Source: a virus | Lineage: Duplodnaviria; Caudoviricetes | Length of the DNA: 32,225 nucleotides | Reading direction: 5' to 3' (one strand) | IMG/VR virus record: IMGVR_UViG_3300020239_000013 | Coordinates: 1 to 32,225 of that record | In this document: in pieces, positions 15,063-28,919 of the stretch | Position numbering within the stretch: the stretch's first letter is position 1 | Layout of the letters: each line of letters begins with the position of its first letter | Notes under the pieces: generated by a model | What the model saw: the letters and a program-made list of their open reading frames with translations, nothing else | Told to the model about the DNA's origin: nothing | Databases searched by the model: none | Made by a program: the position numbers and the translations under genes

Positions 15063-15485
15063 CTATTTAATTTTAATTAACTTGGGTTTCTTTTCTTCTG
15101 GAATAATTCTTTCCAGTAGTATAGTTAAAAGACCATCTTCTAACTTTGCATCTTTAACTTCAATGTCATCTGCAATTGTAAACTCACGGGTAAACTTTCT
15201 ATATGATATACCTTTATAAATATTTTTTGTATCATGTTCGTTTTCTTTTACAGATTTTATTTTTAATACATTATCTGCAACTTCAACTTCAATATCTTTT
15301 TTACCGAAACCTGCAAGTGCCATTTCAATTCTAAAATTATATTCATCGTCCTTCATAATATCATATGGAGGATATGTTTTAGTTACTCTTGAACTATGTG
15401 CAAGCTGATCGAATAAACGATCAAAGCCAACAGCATAAGGTGTTAATGTATTAAAGTGATCAAATAAAGTTAATGTTTGATTCAT
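15063..15485 (-). CDS. hsp20: Small heat-shock protein (Hsp20/IbpA family)
   Basis: GFDRLF, YPPYDI, IEMALAGF, YKGISYRKFTREF, A.LEDGLL.I.LERIIPEEKKP..I.I. Confidence 0.95.
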   Translation of the reverse strand: MNQTLTLFDHFNTLTPYAVGFDRLFDQLAHSSRVTKTYPPYDIMKDDEYNFRIEMALAGFGKKDIEVEVADNVLKIKSVKENEHDTKNIYKGISYRKFTREFTIADDIEVKDAKLEDGLLTILLERIIPEEKKPKLIKIK

Positions 15486-20954: not shown

Positions 20955-22625
20955 TTAAAGCCACTGTGTATCATCATCAAACAAAAAATTATCTGCTTTC
21001 TGCGACCAGGGTACTTTATTCATAGTTAACTTGTCATAATGTGTTCTTAATGTTTCTAAGGCAATAGCTGTAGCCATAATAGTATCATCATGACACCCAG
21101 GAGCAGCCTCAGTTCTTCCGGAGTCGGTACTAACATAATCTTTTAATTCCTGTATAATAGTACGTGATGCTATCCATATATCATCATTTTCTACAGCATT
21201 TTTTAAATTACCAATTATATGTGGTTTTGTTACCTGAGTTGTTTTAAACCCTGGTACCATACCTTCTTCTTTTGATATAGCCGAAATTTTTGTTTGTTTA
21301 TATAAATTTATATAATTCATCTGTGCTAGTCGAGATAATGTTGCAACGCCCATTGAATTACTTTCAACAGTTAACAATGCATTATTATAATAGCGACCTA
21401 AGTAAAATAATAAATCACCAAACTTACTAGGGTCAATATAATTATCTCTATACAAAGCAATTACTTTTCTATCTGTGTCCATAACAACAGCTGCTGAATA
21501 ATCTTGTCCAACACCTAATGCAACATCGGCAGCAAGAATATAATTACTATCCCAATCAGGAAACTCCCATATATCCAGATTGCCATCTTTCGATGCCTCC
21601 CACGTAAATGAATTAAAATCAAATATCATTCTTTTATCAGGTTCAGCAGGTAATAACTTTTTTAATTTGTCCATTGCAAATACAGATTTACCTGCAGTAA
21701 TAAATGCTTCATCGGGAGTTGCTGGGTATTCCTGGCGGAACTTTAGTTCCCCACCTTCAGCAATCTTCAACCGACGCCAGTAGAGTTGTCCGTTGTTTAA
21801 GTTGTGATCCTCTACCAGTAGCTCTTCTTCTGAAGAACGTTCGAAGTCTTCCGGTGGTTCTCTGTAGTATTCAGAGGTCGTAAACCACGGAAGGAATATC
21901 GGTGTATATTCATTTTCACCATTTAATGCACCACGCCATAATCTATAAAACTCACCTTGTGCACCATTAGCGGTTGACTCAAGTATAACTTCAGTACCCG
22001 GCGCTTCAGATATACCCTGAAACAAACCAGCTAATATTTTCTCATCATGTTGCCAGAAAGCAATCTCCGATAGATGTGCTATAGTCGGTGTAGTTCCACG
22101 GCCAGCCTCAGGACTACCCGCAGTATATAATCTATATGACGATACAGGTTTTTCACCAGTAGCATCTTTTTTAAAGTGAGGTGATGAAATAACAATTTCT
22201 TTTGCATTTGATCGCAGCTCAGTTGGTTTATACAAAGAATCCATATTCCTTATAATATTACGGCTCATATTAAATAGTGCGTCAGATGTTGCGCTGTCGT
22301 GTGCCATAACAACTGAACGAGCATGCGGTGTAAAATATGTTTTCCAGAATACTCTGCCAGCACAGTAAGTTGATATTCCTTGCTGTCTAGCTTTTAATAT
22401 AATAGCTCTGACCTTTCCGTTTGTTGCTAACTGTTCATCTAAAATTTCTGTAATTTTTTTCTGACAGTCGTTGAACGTAAAGTTTACAAAGCCCCTCCTT
22501 GCATCTTTAGTAATAATCTTAATATTGTCTGATGCAAAGTCAGTAAAGTTATTCTGATAGTTATTTAGCTTTTTTCTTTTATGTTTTTCTTCGAGAAGCT
22601 GGATTAACTGTTTCTTCTTATTCAT
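20955..22625 (-). CDS. terL: Terminase large subunit
   Basis: Walker A ILKARQQGIST, Walker B HLSEIAFW, ESTANG coupling motif, nuclease ADVALGVGQDYS, VESN and HDD.IMA. Confidence 0.95.
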   Translation of the reverse strand: MNKKKQLIQLLEEKHKRKKLNNYQNNFTDFASDNIKIITKDARRGFVNFTFNDCQKKITEILDEQLATNGKVRAIILKARQQGISTYCAGRVFWKTYFTPHARSVVMAHDSATSDALFNMSRNIIRNMDSLYKPTELRSNAKEIVISSPHFKKDATGEKPVSSYRLYTAGSPEAGRGTTPTIAHLSEIAFWQHDEKILAGLFQGISEAPGTEVILESTANGAQGEFYRLWRGALNGENEYTPIFLPWFTTSEYYREPPEDFERSSEEELLVEDHNLNNGQLYWRRLKIAEGGELKFRQEYPATPDEAFITAGKSVFAMDKLKKLLPAEPDKRMIFDFNSFTWEASKDGNLDIWEFPDWDSNYILAADVALGVGQDYSAAVVMDTDRKVIALYRDNYIDPSKFGDLLFYLGRYYNNALLTVESNSMGVATLSRLAQMNYINLYKQTKISAISKEEGMVPGFKTTQVTKPHIIGNLKNAVENDDIWIASRTIIQELKDYVSTDSGRTEAAPGCHDDTIMATAIALETLRTHYDKLTMNKVPWSQKADNFLFDDDTQWL

Positions 22626-22646
22626 TTTAGCTTCTCCTCAGTTTAA

Positions 22647-22684
22647 CTTTAAGGGGACATTTAAATTTAAACGTCTCCTTAAAG
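22647..22684. promoter_or_regulatory. 38-bp near-perfect palindrome upstream of terL
   Basis: CTTTAAGGGGACATTTAAA / TTTAAACGTCTCCTTAAAG, 17 of 19 positions complementary; one arm recurs at 26815-26832. Confidence 0.7.
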
Positions 22685-22810
22685 GGGGGATCTATATATT
22701 ATATATAAGCTGAAGGATAAGTAAACTTAACTTATAAAATGTGTATATACCCTTATATACTTTCAGCCCCCTACTTCTTTATATACACTTATTTTATTCT
22801 TACATTTTCT

Positions 22811-22839
22811 TTTACATCTTTACTTCCTTAACATAAAAT
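22811..22839 (+). promoter_or_regulatory. Sigma70-like promoter containing no G
   Basis: TTTACA-17 nt-TAAAAT, 5/6 match in both boxes. Confidence 0.65.
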
Positions 22840-22866
22840 TTACTCCACGTTGTTCCATAAATTTTT
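22836..22866 (+). repeat. Intergenic motif A, copy 1 of 3
   Basis: AAATTTACTCC..CATAAATTTTT; other copies at 23578-23610 and 26843-26874. Confidence 0.7.
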
Positions 22867-22903
22867 CTATACTTTTCTTTCAATTATATAAAGGATCTCC
22901 ATT

Positions 22904-23257
22904 ATGCAATTTCAAAAACCTCTTTCTTTTCTTAATCCTCTTTATAATTCACAACAATTCACTAACTTATATAATTATATAAATCTTCCACAAAATAATA
23001 ATTTCTTTCACACTCATTCATTTAATTATATAATTACAAATACACAAACCCAACAATTTTATACACAACACTATAAAATTATAAATCAAACTTTGGGTTT
23101 ACAACCTACTCCTTCTAACCCTAATTATATTACTCCACAACAAAATAATATAATTAACCAATATAATCCTCTTCCTCCAATACCTTCTACACCTCAGGCA
23201 TCTGAAGCACCTCAAACATCTACTCCCACTCCTTCAGAACCTGTTTCTAATTTATAA
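22904..23257 (+). CDS. G-depleted first early gene; N/Q/T/P/Y-rich protein of unknown function
   Basis: AAGGA SD, promoter upstream and terminator downstream; only 10 G in 354 nt; no in-frame TAA despite very high A/T content. Confidence 0.7.
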   Translation: MQFQKPLSFLNPLYNSQQFTNLYNYINLPQNNNFFHTHSFNYIITNTQTQQFYTQHYKIINQTLGLQPTPSNPNYITPQQNNIINQYNPLPPIPSTPQASEAPQTSTPTPSEPVSNL

Positions 23258-23263
23258 ATCTCT

Positions 23264-23295
23264 AAATACCTCACCTAAGCGGTGGGGTATTTTTT
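23264..23295 (+). terminator. Intrinsic terminator
   Basis: AAATACCTCACC-TAAGC-GGTGGGGTATTTTTT. Confidence 0.85.
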
Positions 23296-23300
23296 AAAAG

Positions 23301-23312
23301 AACCTACATCCG
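23301..23312 (+). repeat. Intergenic motif B (AACCYACATCCG), copy 1 of 3
   Basis: Other copies at 26379-26390 and 26896-26907; degenerate copies at 23661 and 24468. Confidence 0.7.
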
Positions 23313-23354
23313 TAGACCCACACGTGTTACGTTGGAGTTTACTTGAAGTTAATC

Positions 23355-23370
23355 TGTCAGAATTCTGACA
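23355..23370. promoter_or_regulatory. Perfect 16-bp palindrome (operator-like)
   Basis: TGTCAGAATTCTGACA, intergenic, about 35 nt before a start codon. Confidence 0.5.
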
Positions 23371-23404
23371 ATATAACCCGCGTCCAAACTTTACAGGAGT
23401 TCCT

Positions 23405-23575
23405 ATGTTATTCACCAATCTCAATAAACGTCTCGATGACGAGTTCCTTTTAATCTATACGAAGCTCAAGCACATTGAGAATCAAATAGATCTTCTCATC
23501 ACTAAACTCGATAACGAAGATGATCCCGAAGATCTTCTCTCAGAATCTGAAAAATCTTTTCTCTCAGATTCCTAA
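23405..23575 (+). CDS. 56-aa acidic early protein (not in ORF track)
   Basis: MLFTNLNKRLDDEFLLIYTKLKHIENQIDLLITKLDNEDDPEDLLSESEKSFLSDS; AGGAG SD. Confidence 0.7.
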   Translation: MLFTNLNKRLDDEFLLIYTKLKHIENQIDLLITKLDNEDDPEDLLSESEKSFLSDS

Positions 23576-23681
23576 TCAAATTTATTCCGGCTAACGCTAC
23601 ATAAATTTTTCTTTACTTTTCCTTCTCTACATATACACCTTATATAAAGGTCCAGATGTTCCTACATCCTAAGAGAAGCAA

Positions 23682-23712
23682 AACGAACCTGAGCATGTCG
23701 TTAAACTGCTCA
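23682..23712 (+). ncRNA. Putative H-type pseudoknot in the ssb leader
   Basis: AACGA(A)C/GUCGUU interleaved with UGAGCA/UGCUCA, then an AU-rich unstructured spacer to the SD. Confidence 0.65.
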
Positions 23713-23755
23713 CGAATTATTTAATCTTAACATCTAGCAAAGGAAGGTACTATCC

Positions 23756-24244
23756 ATGCAGAATTTTGAAGCACGTAATTATCGTATTGATAATGTCGAA
23801 ATCAATTGGGCTAAGCTAGCTAAGCCTGTAAATCCTTTTGGCACTGAGCAATGGGAAATACAAATAGCTACTACTGATAAAGCTAAAGCTGATGAATGGT
23901 CAGCTAATCATTTTAATGTAAAGACTGATAAAGCTGATTCGTCTAAGTATACTGTTTCTCTCAAAAGAAAAGCATACAAAGCTGACGGTTCATCTAACGG
24001 TCCAGTCAGAGTTGTTGGTAAAGATACACAACCTATCGCAGATCCTTCAGTAATCGGTAACGGTTCTGTTGGTAATGTTATTGTATATCAATACCCTTAT
24101 TCTACTGCAGGTCGCGAAGGTATTGCAAGTTCTTTAACTGCAGTACAAATCGTTACTCTTAACGAATACACACCTGCTGTAGACTTCGAGCCGATTGTTG
24201 AACCTCAGCAATCTAATGATCAACCAGCAGAAATGCCATTCTAA
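23756..24244 (+). CDS. Single-stranded DNA-binding protein (gp2.5/DUF2815-like)
   Basis: WAKL.KP, P.VV, IGNGS.GNV and L.AVQI..L.EY motifs; acidic tail ending in PF. Confidence 0.8.
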   Translation: MQNFEARNYRIDNVEINWAKLAKPVNPFGTEQWEIQIATTDKAKADEWSANHFNVKTDKADSSKYTVSLKRKAYKADGSSNGPVRVVGKDTQPIADPSVIGNGSVGNVIVYQYPYSTAGREGIASSLTAVQIVTLNEYTPAVDFEPIVEPQQSNDQPAEMPF

Positions 24245-24254
24245 GGAGATACTT

Positions 24255-24416
24255 ATGGGTGTTATAGCCACAGGTTTATTCCAAGGTATTGTTACTTTAA
24301 TGCTTATCGCCGGTACTATAACTGAGACTGAGAATCATACCTCACTCGATATAACCGGTCTTAAAGCACAAAAAGAAGCAATCTTCATGTCTACAGACGA
24401 TAACACGTCTAAGTAA
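24255..24416 (+). CDS. 53-aa protein with hydrophobic N-terminus
   Basis: TAAGGAG SD places the start at 24255 (MGVIATGLFQGIVTLMLIAG). Confidence 0.6.
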   Translation: MGVIATGLFQGIVTLMLIAGTITETENHTSLDITGLKAQKEAIFMSTDDNTSK

Positions 24417-24424
24417 ATAATTCT

Positions 24425-24456
24425 TAGGGACTAAGCGTTCACTCTCTTAGTCCCTA
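24425..24456 (+). other. Intergenic hairpin (terminator or RNase III-type processing site)
   Basis: TAGGGACTAAG-10 nt-CTTAGTCCCTA perfect 11-bp stem; weak U tract. Confidence 0.55.
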
Positions 24457-24497
24457 CATTATTTAGCAAACCGTCATCCAATATAGAAAGGTAGCTT

Positions 24498-25010
24498 ATG
24501 GCAGTTTATAGAAAACCTCGTAACAGTAAAAAGTCATGGCGATCTAAGTCATATAAATTTACTGTAGCAACTAAAGATGATAAAAGTCTTATCGATCTTA
24601 AAAATACTATTACTAAACAAAATGCAAACGTAAGAAAGCATGCAAGAACTTATCAAATGATTACAGATTATGATATGCTCTACACAGTGCGCCTTATGGC
24701 GCGTGGCCCAAGACGATGGCATACTAAATATAAACCATCTCTTGTAAGATACTTCAAAGGTGCATACGGCATTCCACAAACACAAAAGTTATTACATGGT
24801 AATGCTGATTCTAATCTTAATCATAAATTTGCTGAAGAGTTCGACGTATACGTACATCACGATAGACACGCTCTCGATAAACTAAAACATGAAATCGAAA
24901 CCGGTCAAACTCCTGGTGTTCAACGTAAAATCGAAAAGCTTAAGAATAAAATATGGCGTCTTGAGTTCCAAGCTAAAAATGATAAGTTAGCAGCTTATGG
25001 ATCAAATTGA
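24498..25010 (+). CDS. Basic hypothetical early protein
   Basis: 170 aa Lys/Arg-rich ORF, AAGGT SD. Confidence 0.7.
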   Translation: MAVYRKPRNSKKSWRSKSYKFTVATKDDKSLIDLKNTITKQNANVRKHARTYQMITDYDMLYTVRLMARGPRRWHTKYKPSLVRYFKGAYGIPQTQKLLHGNADSNLNHKFAEEFDVYVHHDRHALDKLKHEIETGQTPGVQRKIEKLKNKIWRLEFQAKNDKLAAYGSN

Positions 25011-26399: not shown

Positions 26400-26795
26400 T
26401 CAGTCCGACAATTCCGCAATTTTTTTCTGCAAATCCTCTTCCGACATTTCCGCCGTATCAAGTGTCAAGCTAGTCTGGTCAATACGCTGTAGCTTCGGCT
26501 GTTCATACTCAGCTAACGCCATAGCCAATCGTTCTATAGTTTCTTGATCTTCCAATTCAATAGCCTTCGCCAATTGTACTTTAAGTATATCAACGGCCGA
26601 TGGCATTTCGGAAATTACTTCATCCCTAATTTTTTTAAACTCGGAGGCTGACAGTCTCATAGCTTCTCTGAGTGCTTTGTTCTGACGACGCTTCTCCGCG
26701 CCTCTCGCCTGCATCTCACGAGCTGTCTCTGAGTCCATCACTGGTCTCAACTGTGCAAGCGAATTCGGGTGCTTCCCGCAATTCTCATAACCCAT
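26400..26795 (-). CDS. Putative terminase small subunit
   Basis: HPNSLAQL.P...ARE....G N-terminus, PKLQR.D and MSEEDL C-terminus; AAGGAGGT SD; shares an upstream motif with terL. Confidence 0.6.
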   Translation of the reverse strand: MGYENCGKHPNSLAQLRPVMDSETAREMQARGAEKRRQNKALREAMRLSASEFKKIRDEVISEMPSAVDILKVQLAKAIELEDQETIERLAMALAEYEQPKLQRIDQTSLTLDTAEMSEEDLQKKIAELSD

Positions 26796-26917
26796 AGGTA
26801 CCTCCTTTAGATTTCTTTTAGGAGACGTTTAAGATCTTAATTAAATTTATTCCGCTGTCGCTACATAAATTTTTATATAATATATATTTTTTAATAACCC
26901 ACATCCGGAGTATGCGT

Positions 26918-27085
26918 ATGAAACCACATATTAGAATCATTAATCCTATAGCTAAAGCTATGAATGAAGGTAGAAGACGTGAATACGCACATAAAGTTAT
27001 TCCAGATAAAACTAAATACAATCGTAAGAAAGGAAATAAGTATGGCAAAAGTAACAGCCTCGACGATATTGAAAGAAGCAGCTGA
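26918..27085 (+). CDS. 55-aa basic protein, weakly ArfA-like (not in ORF track)
   Basis: MKPHIRIINPIAKAMNEGRRREYAHKVIPDKTKYNRKKGNK...; GGAG SD. Confidence 0.6.
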   Translation: MKPHIRIINPIAKAMNEGRRREYAHKVIPDKTKYNRKKGNKYGKSNSLDDIERSS

Positions 27086-27365
27086 GCTTAAAGAAAGAAA
27101 GCAAGCTGATTACCAAGGTAACATGTGGACTGAAGAAGATTACTTTCCATATGGTAATAAATCGTATATGCATATGATTCATACTAAGTATTTACGCATG
27201 AGAAGTCTTGCAGAAACTAAAGATAAAAAGATTAACTTTGAATCCTTAGAAGATACTTTAGTAGACATGGCAGTTTATTGTGCAATGTTTGCAGCTTATT
27301 TAGAAAATAAGAAATTAGAAAATGCAGATGTTATTGATAAAATTAATTCTGAGAAAGGAATATAA
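27042..27365 (+). CDS. Nucleotide-modification-associated (Nmad1/DUF1599-like) helical protein
   Basis: K..DY, YFP.G..SY, K..R..SL and FES.EDTL.D...Y motifs; AAGGA SD places the start at 27042. Confidence 0.7.
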   Translation: MAKVTASTILKEAAELKERKQADYQGNMWTEEDYFPYGNKSYMHMIHTKYLRMRSLAETKDKKINFESLEDTLVDMAVYCAMFAAYLENKKLENADVIDKINSEKGI

Positions 27366-27589: not shown

Positions 27590-28402
27590 ATGCAAATATA
27601 TAACCAAAAATATTTAAATATAGCTGAAGACATACTAAGATATGGTCGTCAGAAAGAAGGTCGTAATGGTTATACTAGATCTTTACCATTTAAAGAACTA
27701 GAATTTGATATGCGTAATCATTACTTCCCGTTACTAACATCACGTAAGATACACTATGAAGGTGTACTAGGTGAATACGCTGCTATAATTAGACAGCCTA
27801 AAAATGTTAAAGACTTTCAGAAATGGGGGTGCAATTACTGGAATGAGTTCGGAGATCCTGATACTGGCGAGTTACGTCTTAGTTACGGTAATAGTTGGTA
27901 TAATTTTAATGGTGTTAATCAAGTAAGAAACGTATTAAATAATCTTAGATCTAATCCATATGATAGAAGACATATTATTAGCGCATGGAATCCTGAAGGT
28001 ATGGAAGATCTAAGTTTACCACCATGTCATTTCTTATATCAATTCTATGTTGATGAAGATAAATATGATAATGAGAAAACTTTATCTATGTTAATGTATT
28101 CAAGATCAGGTGATTGGATGGTAGGTATACCAAGTGATATGGTATTTGGTGCTACTATGCTAGCATGTTGGTCTAACTTAATTGGTGCTAAGTCAGGTAC
28201 ACTAAAACTAATGGTAGCTGATGCACATATTTATTCAGATCATTTTAGTACAGCTTGGTCACAAATAGAAAATGGTTATGTACATTATGATGCTAACTAT
28301 CATTTGCAACCACAGTTTAGTACAGAAGATTTTGAACCAAAGCATATGGAAATATATAACTACGAACATAAAGGAAATATAAAGTATGAGCTTAAAACGT
28401 AA
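27590..28402 (+). CDS. Thymidylate-synthase-family enzyme, predicted dCMP-specific (methylase or hydroxymethylase)
   Basis: FPLLTSRK, DRRHIISAWNP, LPPCH, RSGD and HIY motifs; Asp (GIPSD) in place of the dUMP-selecting Asn (GLPFN). Confidence 0.8.
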   Translation: MQIYNQKYLNIAEDILRYGRQKEGRNGYTRSLPFKELEFDMRNHYFPLLTSRKIHYEGVLGEYAAIIRQPKNVKDFQKWGCNYWNEFGDPDTGELRLSYGNSWYNFNGVNQVRNVLNNLRSNPYDRRHIISAWNPEGMEDLSLPPCHFLYQFYVDEDKYDNEKTLSMLMYSRSGDWMVGIPSDMVFGATMLACWSNLIGAKSGTLKLMVADAHIYSDHFSTAWSQIENGYVHYDANYHLQPQFSTEDFEPKHMEIYNYEHKGNIKYELKT

Positions 28403-28919
28403 CGAAAATTATTCAGAATGGTATGATGATATTAGAATCATGCATGATAAATTCGGTGCTAAAGAATGGGTTAGACGCCAATTCGAAGCAAGAAATTTTA
28501 AATTATTAAATGATTTCTTAGCATTTAGATTAGACTTTTTAGAAGAAGAGTTTGAAGAAACTCAAGCAGCTTTCTTAAATAAAGATCACAAAGAAGTAGT
28601 TGATGGTTTAATTGATCTTATTGTTATTGCAATAGGTACATTAGAATTATTTAATTGTGATGCAGATAAGGTATGGAAAGAAGTACATAAATCTAATATG
28701 GCTAAAGAACCTGGAGCAAATAAATCCAGGAAGAATCCATTTGGTTTACCAGATATGGTTAAACCTGAAGGCTGGAAAGGACCTGAAATAACTAAGTATG
28801 ATTGCGGAATACTATCTGATATATTTGAAGCAGAAAGAGAAAGGCTTTTAGTATTAAGAGAAAAACGTGATTTACAAAATGAATTTAAAGGTCAAGTAGC
28901 AAACTCACAATATGAATAA
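28386..28919 (+). CDS. MazG-like (DR2231/PRA-PH type) dNTP pyrophosphatase
   Basis: EEE.EE, E.VDGLIDL, EVH.SNM.K and KP.GW..P motifs. Confidence 0.85.
   Translation: MSLKRNENYSEWYDDIRIMHDKFGAKEWVRRQFEARNFKLLNDFLAFRLDFLEEEFEETQAAFLNKDHKEVVDGLIDLIVIAIGTLELFNCDADKVWKEVHKSNMAKEPGANKSRKNPFGLPDMVKPEGWKGPEITKYDCGILSDIFEAERERLLVLREKRDLQNEFKGQVANSQYE

Follow-up and report, generated by a model that had tools for sequence, protein, structure and literature searches.

A predicted podophage first gene written almost without G, and relatives in which the excluded base is A

Marine T7-like phages, as described in the part of PMC12455610 drawn on here, are sensitive to a Type I restriction site only in the leading region, and the same portion of that study describes site avoidance in first-injected DNA for Murciavirus and the Autographiviridae, citing the T5 first-step region. 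Two further points of comparison for the locus analyzed below are the Xp12-type phages, in which 5mC fully replaces C, and the Roseobacter phage CRP-7 group. Our literature search, which covered few subscription journals, returned no description of phage genes or leading regions that lack G or are depleted in guanine or adenine, and the sections of the CRP-7 paper used here (PMC6918029) do not mention a base-free unit. The window, that is, the whole stretch of 32,225 nt analyzed in this work, is a 32-kb podophage fragment with plus-strand early and replication genes and minus-strand late genes that end in the terminase large subunit gene terL (20955-22625, minus strand; PHROG 2, E 4.7e-33). 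Divergent from terL lies a unit nearly devoid of G. As judged by sequence comparison, this phage family has a three-letter first gene whose excluded base depends on the branch, and the gene is real, conserved and selected.

Between 22767 and 23196 (430 nt), the early-sense strand holds 152 A, 101 C, 8 G and 169 T, matching the eight G and plentiful C of the original prediction, and the sliding scan of G content that it proposed makes this tract the unique low of the window, the second-lowest 430-nt stretch having 39 G. The remaining G lie at 22849, 22852, 22893, 22894, 22906 and 23095-23097 and delimit the two G-free runs already predicted, of 188 nt (22907-23094) and 99 nt (23098-23196), together with a third of 82 nt (22767-22848); the longest G-free run in the rest of the window spans 52 nt. 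Chance is excluded as the origin of the tract, with a binomial P of about 1e-21 at the G frequency of the window and of 6e-10 at the rate of the second-lowest stretch. The share of C is raised to 25% and that of A is not. The downstream edge is sharp, with 12-20% G in the next genes, and no depletion ramp was seen along the early arm. An assembly artefact, one of the outcomes that would have undone the original prediction, or low-complexity junk is ruled out by the contigs of an independent DNA run (X5), which cover 30 of 30 bins, by near-identical loci that recur among relatives and by purifying selection on the open reading frame (ORF).

This ORF is a G-stripped gene of 117 codons (22904-23257, plus strand) with 40 homologues; its predicted length was confirmed, and the other five frames across it contain 4 to 15 stops each. 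A comparison of the dN/dS type, suggested in the original prediction, yielded pN/pS values of 0.09-0.47 by a rough counting method in nine pairs of G-stripped homologues, and on this measure the ORF is a real gene under purifying selection. Together with the non-chance composition, this conserved coding unit supports the proposed selection at the nucleotide level. Residues needing G make up at most 5% of the first 80 positions in 34 of the 40 homologues, against 43% in the window's ordinary proteins, and the ATG is the sole source of G in the ORFs of L008, L019, L020, L021 and L053.

The encoded protein consists of a conserved core of about 65 residues followed by a Pro/Gln/Thr tail. Structural modelling of an ordinary homologue (P0110; core of 60 residues, pLDDT 57-90) predicts three short helices and a short hairpin in the core and a disordered tail. 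Searches with the 117-codon protein gave no Pfam, PHROG or Atlas family match and fold comparison no match (best Z 2.7; best E 0.44), results that prove neither novelty nor the absence of relatives. The core has no acidic residues, unlike Ocr-type DNA mimics, which are acidic proteins. Solely from its position, the product is predicted to be an anti-defence protein. The longer members of the family (L008, L020, L021 and P0106; 167-171 aa) present an apparent internal duplication of the core helix segment.

The message itself is predicted to fold, over 22967-23157 (plus strand), into three A-U-rich stems, with the GGG of the Leu-Gly pair (23095-23097) paired to an upstream CCC, and folding of the ORF exceeds that of synonymous shuffles (z -3.4). 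The same holds for the A-U stems of 10 of 12 G-stripped ORFs (z -3 to -6.6), L019 and L010 having little structure. Since A-U stems are kept in the mRNA, as in other early genes, absence of structure is not the purpose of the G loss. A Rho utilisation site or decoy RNA was rejected because the RNA is coding and folded more than its shuffles. Rfam returned no matches at E up to 1 over 22400-24600.

Several elements surround the gene. An inverted repeat with G-runs (22647-22684; 19-nt arms, 89% complementary) lies ahead of terL and is kept in clade relatives. At the start of the G-free tract, a C-run motif (TATA-CCC ... CCCCC; 22740-22772, plus strand) occurs once in the window and, among the 61 loci whose upstream sequence is 450 nt or longer, is present on the early-sense strand of 53; it is a candidate genome-end or promoter signal. 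In the CRP-7 clade the motif is reverse-complemented on the early-sense strand (CRP-7 record 57295-57345; also L127, L102 and L134), where its four G-runs could form a quadruplex. Four G occur in the 137 nt of the leader (22767-22903, plus strand), and the Shine-Dalgarno site AAGGA (22891-22895, plus strand) accounts for two of these. Homologues have GGAG or AGGA before the ATG, and five relatives (L008, L018, L020, L021 and L026) have wholly G-free leaders of 130-330 nt. Because non-coding leaders are also G-free, the constraint acts on nucleotides.

The signals proposed for transcription fared less evenly. The predicted sigma-70-like promoter, TTTACA-17-TAAAAT (22811-22839, plus strand), is present with a 10/12 match, but such sites are not above chance in the scan (10 found, 8.2 expected) and an RNA contig begins upstream of it, at 22796, so that it is probably not the sole start. 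That contig comes from one metatranscriptome whose contigs (depth 2.5-3.5) cover 22796-23211 and the unit of the single-stranded DNA-binding protein (SSB) and skip the DNA between and upstream, a weak hint of the transcribed span; two other RNA runs (X16, X17) cover only parts of terL or of the SSB unit and none of the G-free unit, an absence that is uninformative in either direction. Likewise, the strong terminator of the original prediction corresponds to a terminator-like hairpin in which G reappears (23264-23295, plus strand; 12-bp stem, then a T run), but the hairpin is absent from the list of our terminator scan. Of 11 loci examined, 9 have a G-C hairpin after the stop; it is lacking in L008 and L021, where the stop codon is followed by 117-138 more G-free nt with A/T inverted repeats ending in a T run, possibly a G-free terminator.

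Past the terminator, at 23330-23385, a segment with a hairpin (GAAGTTTACTTGAAGTTA ... CTGTCAGAATTCTGACA) is kept in most clade members irrespective of the first gene. A short G-free element of 52 nt (23597-23648, plus strand) ahead of the SSB unit shares a 26-nt repeat with the leader (92%). In addition, an inverted A/T repeat (AAATTTA ... TAAATTT) recurs at 22836-22866, 23577-23610 and 26835-26875, each time ahead of an early unit and with a G-free run of pyrimidines behind it; it constitutes a candidate promoter or operator element.

Relatives were located with terL as the anchor. The upstream sequence is 700 nt or longer in 56 of the resulting 80 TerL loci; among these 56, near-duplicates included, 23 contain a G-free run of 150 nt or more (up to 648 nt) within the first 1500 nt upstream of terL, in line with the expectation that G-free first genes would recur in related contigs. 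Among close relatives the tract is optional. Among isolates, Roseobacter phage CRP-7 has the closest TerL (60%), four of five related records encode a T7-like RNA polymerase, and the runs containing the stretch are marine or estuarine by their records. No terminal repeat or molecule end was found in the records searched, all of which are classed as linear; the terms first-early and first-injected hence rest on gene order, the unit lying where the late and early arms diverge, from which the G-stripped gene is predicted to be the first early gene and the first-entering DNA.

Other features of these genomes were recorded in passing. Four loci (L025, L040, L028 and L044) present G-poor stretches (2-4% G) of up to 1.3 kb over several small unrelated ORFs, an intermediate state. 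The tractless L250 (NZIO01000066.1; TerL 83%) is binned, possibly wrongly, in a Pelagibacter MAG, a weak hint of host. Within the early arm of the window, a 131-aa gene (26400-26795, minus strand) is conserved across the family (37-100%) with much more G at fourfold sites; it has no Pfam or PHROG match, and terminase small subunit is a guess at its label. An Hsp20 gene (15063-15485, minus strand; Pfam E 2e-19) lies between the portal and scaffold genes.

Three first-gene families occur beside terL, each in an ordinary and a base-stripped form, and no profile match points to their common ancestry. Ordinary forms of the window's family are found in L210 and L213; the second family is G-poor in L064, L073 and L074 and ordinary in L065, L201 and L218-L221; and the CRP-7 family, discussed below, is ordinary in L098 and L207. 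The existence of both forms in three unrelated families indicates that the proteins were recoded. In aligned codons the swaps are conservative, with Val to Ile, Asp to Asn and Arg to Lys accompanying loss of G and Lys to Arg, Ile to Val and Thr to Ser accompanying loss of A, and lost bases are replaced by all three others, the direction of change being unrooted. A local strand-specific mutator, acting through 5mC deamination on one strand or adenine-directed mutagenesis, would erode the base without benefit to the phage; G to A is indeed the commonest change (55-70% of lost G), and close relatives encode an enzyme of the dCMP deaminase family. However, 30-45% of lost G correspond to C or T, mixed fates that reject pure G-to-A hypermutation, lost A is spread over G, C and T, and it is C rather than A that rises in the tract. 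The boundaries are moreover sharp, the Shine-Dalgarno site, ATG and stems are spared, and no reverse transcriptase is found in CRP-7 gp1-32 or in its annotation. We regard a mutator as very improbable.

At the junction equivalent to that of the window, the early-sense strand of CRP-7 is free of A over stretches of 224, 168 and 104 nt, the first two being separated by a single A, that of the ATG behind a GGGG ribosome site. Its 129-codon ORF has no A at 104 fourfold sites, substitutions show a third-position excess (42 vs 25 and 19; 81 vs 40 and 36), and the unit ends with a terminator-like hairpin. Units of the same kind occur in L109, L127 and L130 and in the more distant L206, while L098 and L134 have only an A-free leader and L102 no tract. 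Residues needing A account for at most 12% of the core in 57 of 64 family members and for at least 30% in four (one of 65 rows, missing the anchor motif, was dropped). The CRP-7 gene gp72 is deposited on the minus strand (L081:17272-17967; record 57271-57966), but the 129-codon gene of this region is placed on the plus strand (57608-57997) by its ordinary homologues and by a conserved ATG, stop and ribosome site; stops cannot occur on a strand that lacks A or T, and gene callers are misled by this. A segment of about 90 nt in the A-free leader (CRP-7 record 57500-57590; L098, L109, L127 and L134) is kept even with an ordinary homologue downstream and is possibly a structured RNA or DNA element. 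In a midpoint-rooted TerL tree (97 of 140 rows after duplicate removal), the deepest split separates all A-free units from all G-free ones, so that the division provides few independent contrasts. The G-free unit of the original prediction thus recurs in relatives, but the switch of the excluded base to A in another branch and the optional nature of the tract had both escaped it.

Both forms drop a purine from the message, as would be expected if a first transcript lacking one purine were made under scarce or poisoned ATP or GTP, or escaped base-specific RNases or RNA-modifying toxins. Such an RNA-level cause would account for the choice of strand and for context independence; the exceptions are exactly the Shine-Dalgarno site, AUG, stop and terminator, and the A-free tract begins immediately after a TAGGTT -10-like box. 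On the other hand, translation needs both ATP and GTP regardless, no C- or U-free message was found in any locus scanned, and A-free DNA extends 40-140 nt beyond the terminator or stop, to the next Shine-Dalgarno site. Avoidance of GA dinucleotides was rejected, since GA persists among the residual G, which also argues against a GA-specific toxin such as CmdT, whose specificity is GA. An RNA-level cause leaves unpredicted the link with DNA modifiers described below, and we consider it unlikely.

The window encodes a thymidylate synthase (TS) homologue (27590-28402, plus strand) with Leu143, Asp169 and an Asp at the equivalent of Asn177, predicted to be a dCMP methylase (5mC DNA) under the residue criteria for TS homologues given in the portion of PMC13326640 used here. 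It is accompanied by a PRA-PH/MazG-like pyrophosphatase (28386-28919, plus strand), a predicted dCTPase in a modified-C neighbourhood, by Pol A and by DUF1599 (nucleotide-modification-associated domain 1; 26964-27365, plus strand; E 1.8e-05), and a dCMP deaminase is seen in L178 (TS 97% identical) in DNA beyond the window's end. A TS homologue with PRA-PH, dCMP deaminase and Pol A is the neighbourhood of modified-C contigs in the part of 10.1101/2024.12.05.627091 consulted. From these genes we infer that the phage of the window replaces C by 5mC. The clade of the second family has a different Asp-type enzyme, the motif of which resembles that of the T4 hydroxymethylase.

Four G-free contigs extend as far as the nucleotide genes, and each encodes a predicted dCMP-modifying enzyme, of the methylase type in the window and L001 (counted once), L018 and L021 and of the hydroxymethylase-like type in L073; the L017 fragment, with no TS match, was left out of this count. 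The expected co-occurrence with an Asp-type TS homologue is therefore seen in all testable G-free contigs, but its reverse fails: ten loci carry a modifier without a tract (L014, L023, L024, L045, L072, L230, L218, L219, L221 and L151), and the isolate or reference phages Kolga, PH1, VPMS1, KF-1, Amaethon and ctXG1253, which carry similar enzymes (of the Asp type in five to six), have no such tract either. L224 (96% complete) has no TS match and neither type of tract. In L151/G035 (52 kb, 92% complete), the hydroxymethylase-like gene occurs with no RNA polymerase match and no base-free tract. The complete CRP-7 genome has no match to either modifying enzyme, with none in Pfam for gp1-32; no Z-DNA or thymine-modification pathway was found in gp1-32, gp33-72 being judged by annotation only. 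The tetranucleotide CGCG is seen once in CRP-7 against 29 expected and 12 times in the window against 11, and by these counts CRP-7 is under classical restriction pressure and the window is not.

The link of G-free units to modifiers also fits the original proposal of a C-free template for the host RNA polymerase, according to which a 5mC or 5hmC template is read poorly, the first unit's template consequently lacks modified C and the A-free branch has a separate cause. In the sections of PMC4838386 used here, 5mC blocked the B. subtilis polymerase and partly inhibited that of E. coli. This proposal further accounts for a G-free instead of the cheaper C-free message, for the context-independent loss per base, for the match to the transcribed span and for the short G-free elements ahead of other early units. 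In the same portion of PMC4838386, though, the effect in vitro is on initiation, with no pausing or slower elongation, so that a G-free ORF body is not predicted. The next early genes have 12-20% G, and generally G-poor promoters were not seen in modifier phages, whose intergenic G/(G+C) of 0.37-0.55 compares with 0.43-0.55 and reveals no general deficit. The A-free unit of CRP-7 is left unexplained. A template effect seems to us unlikely, if slightly less so than the RNA-level cause above.

A role of sunlight would likewise account for the strand and the switch of base, if the pyrimidine that reacts most readily to light, T in plain DNA and 5mC in modified DNA, were dropped from the template strand and dimers thereby rarely blocked the first gene. 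According to the part of PMC8477449 drawn on, 5mC and 5hmC readily form dimers in sunlight; the tract holders are marine, and leaders are purine-poor even in relatives without a stripped gene (0.27-0.47 vs 0.57). Two predictions of simple dimer avoidance nevertheless failed: template TT in G-free ORFs, at 13-19.5 per 100 nt, does not fall under the 13-14 of the genome, and residual G is not directed to pyrimidine flanks (YGY 22% vs 18% in controls; RGR 26% vs 26%). There is also no deficit of AA relative to synonymous shuffles (z -0.9). This makes sunlight an improbable cause.

The explanation that we favour, tentatively and at somewhat less than an even chance, is that the stripping of G hides first-entering DNA from host restriction enzymes or nucleases. 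A little more tentative is the broader proposal that the family repeatedly evolved three-letter genes, recoding any protein that comes to occupy the first slot, and that the excluded base tracks the phage's own DNA chemistry, A in plain DNA and G in DNA with 5mC or 5hmC. Selection would act on the DNA, the first few hundred bp to enter carrying the methyl-target base on one strand only and evading host nucleases until synthesis of the first gene's product, the predicted anti-defence protein. All sites needing a given base on both strands would be abolished by removing it from one of them: a lower strand without C would nearly eliminate sites that need modified C or a C and a G spanning the two strands (CG, CNG, GCNGC and C-N20-23-G), and in unmodified phages of the CRP-7 type, A would be cleared because the threat would be adenine-methylating Type I, II and III systems, which need A on both strands or in inverted pairs. 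PMC12707154 describes modification of both strands by Type I systems and a need for inverted sites in Type III systems. An optional tract would be expected of a host-specific arms-race cassette.

Relative to the median of other 430-mers, the tract contains 0 CNG (30), 2 GC (34), 2 CNNG (24) and 8 C-N20-23-G (74), and CRP-7 has 9 A-N7-10-T against a median of 148, although depletion of two-strand sites is a trivial consequence of losing the base. In A-free tracts, which are G-rich, the number of G/C-only palindromes is reduced by about half, and this halving and the A-free DNA past the terminator point to a DNA-level cause. Site depletion, the agreement of the excluded base with the DNA chemistry, the CGCG contrast, the A-free DNA beyond the terminator and the Type I precedent in marine T7-like phages together favour restriction escape. 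The evidence is not one-sided, as single-strand targets are left in the tract (44 RC vs 82, 37 CNNR vs 64 and 27 CC vs 24), the tract of the G-free clade stops at the terminator, matching the transcribed span, and a C-free message would empty the same sites at far lower cost, ruling out 23% of residues instead of 43%, yet only the G-free one is seen. The C-run motif, conserved in 53 of 61 loci, could be the reason for the G-free choice by tying C to the upper strand, an ad hoc suggestion. The cheaper C-free option, the remaining single-strand targets, the context-free residual G and the transcript match instead favour a template or RNA cause. Of the options in the original prediction, that of restriction survives as our leading one in an altered form, with modified-C-dependent enzymes as the agents behind G-free units and adenine-targeting systems behind A-free units; the C-free template keeps its modifier link but does not cover the A-free relatives, and 5mC acts at initiation in vitro (PMC4838386, as above); the option of GTP or G-specific RNases is retained, within the RNA-level cause, as unlikely.

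If restriction escape is true, three-letter genes would be a sequence-independent escape from whole restriction classes rather than from single enzymes, a general trick for passing unknown restriction barriers, and the first-slot proteins would become new candidates for anti-defence functions. Should the cause lie in transcription or RNA, an unrecognised base-specific obstacle would exist in the first minute of infection. In either case these are natural, selected genes in three bases with four-base homologues as built-in controls, in which the cost of losing 9-10 amino acids and the selective force that offsets it can be measured, and since CRP-7 and its host are both cultured, the question is directly testable.

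Rho-loading (rut) tracts and artificial G-less cassettes also have a C-rich, G-poor strand, but the RNA of the window's unit is translated and keeps A-U stems, and its A-free relatives are G-rich. With the Xp12-type 5mC phages, the window shares three residues in E. coli numbering (Leu143, Asp169 and an Asp at 177) and the same neighbours, its modification being predicted from genes. With the CRP-7 group (PMC6918029) it shares the SU10-like head genes, Pol A, SSB and exonuclease; the single-subunit RNA polymerase of near relatives is common to that group, whereas CRP-7 differs in its A-free instead of G-free unit and in having no TS homologue. The leading-region avoidance described in the part of PMC12455610 cited at the outset likewise involves a variable first region next to the early arm, with small genes that act in anti-defence or have no assigned function, podophages with a T7-like RNA polymerase and marine hosts. 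The residual G of G-stripped units, however, has no context bias beyond the genome-wide CG deficit, the base itself rather than a motif being lost, and for want of motif specificity three-letter units are not filed in that family. Leading-region avoidance loses particular motifs, whereas three-letter first genes lose a whole base from one strand over 400-900 bp, are written in alphabets of 10-11 amino acids and differ by branch in the base that they exclude.
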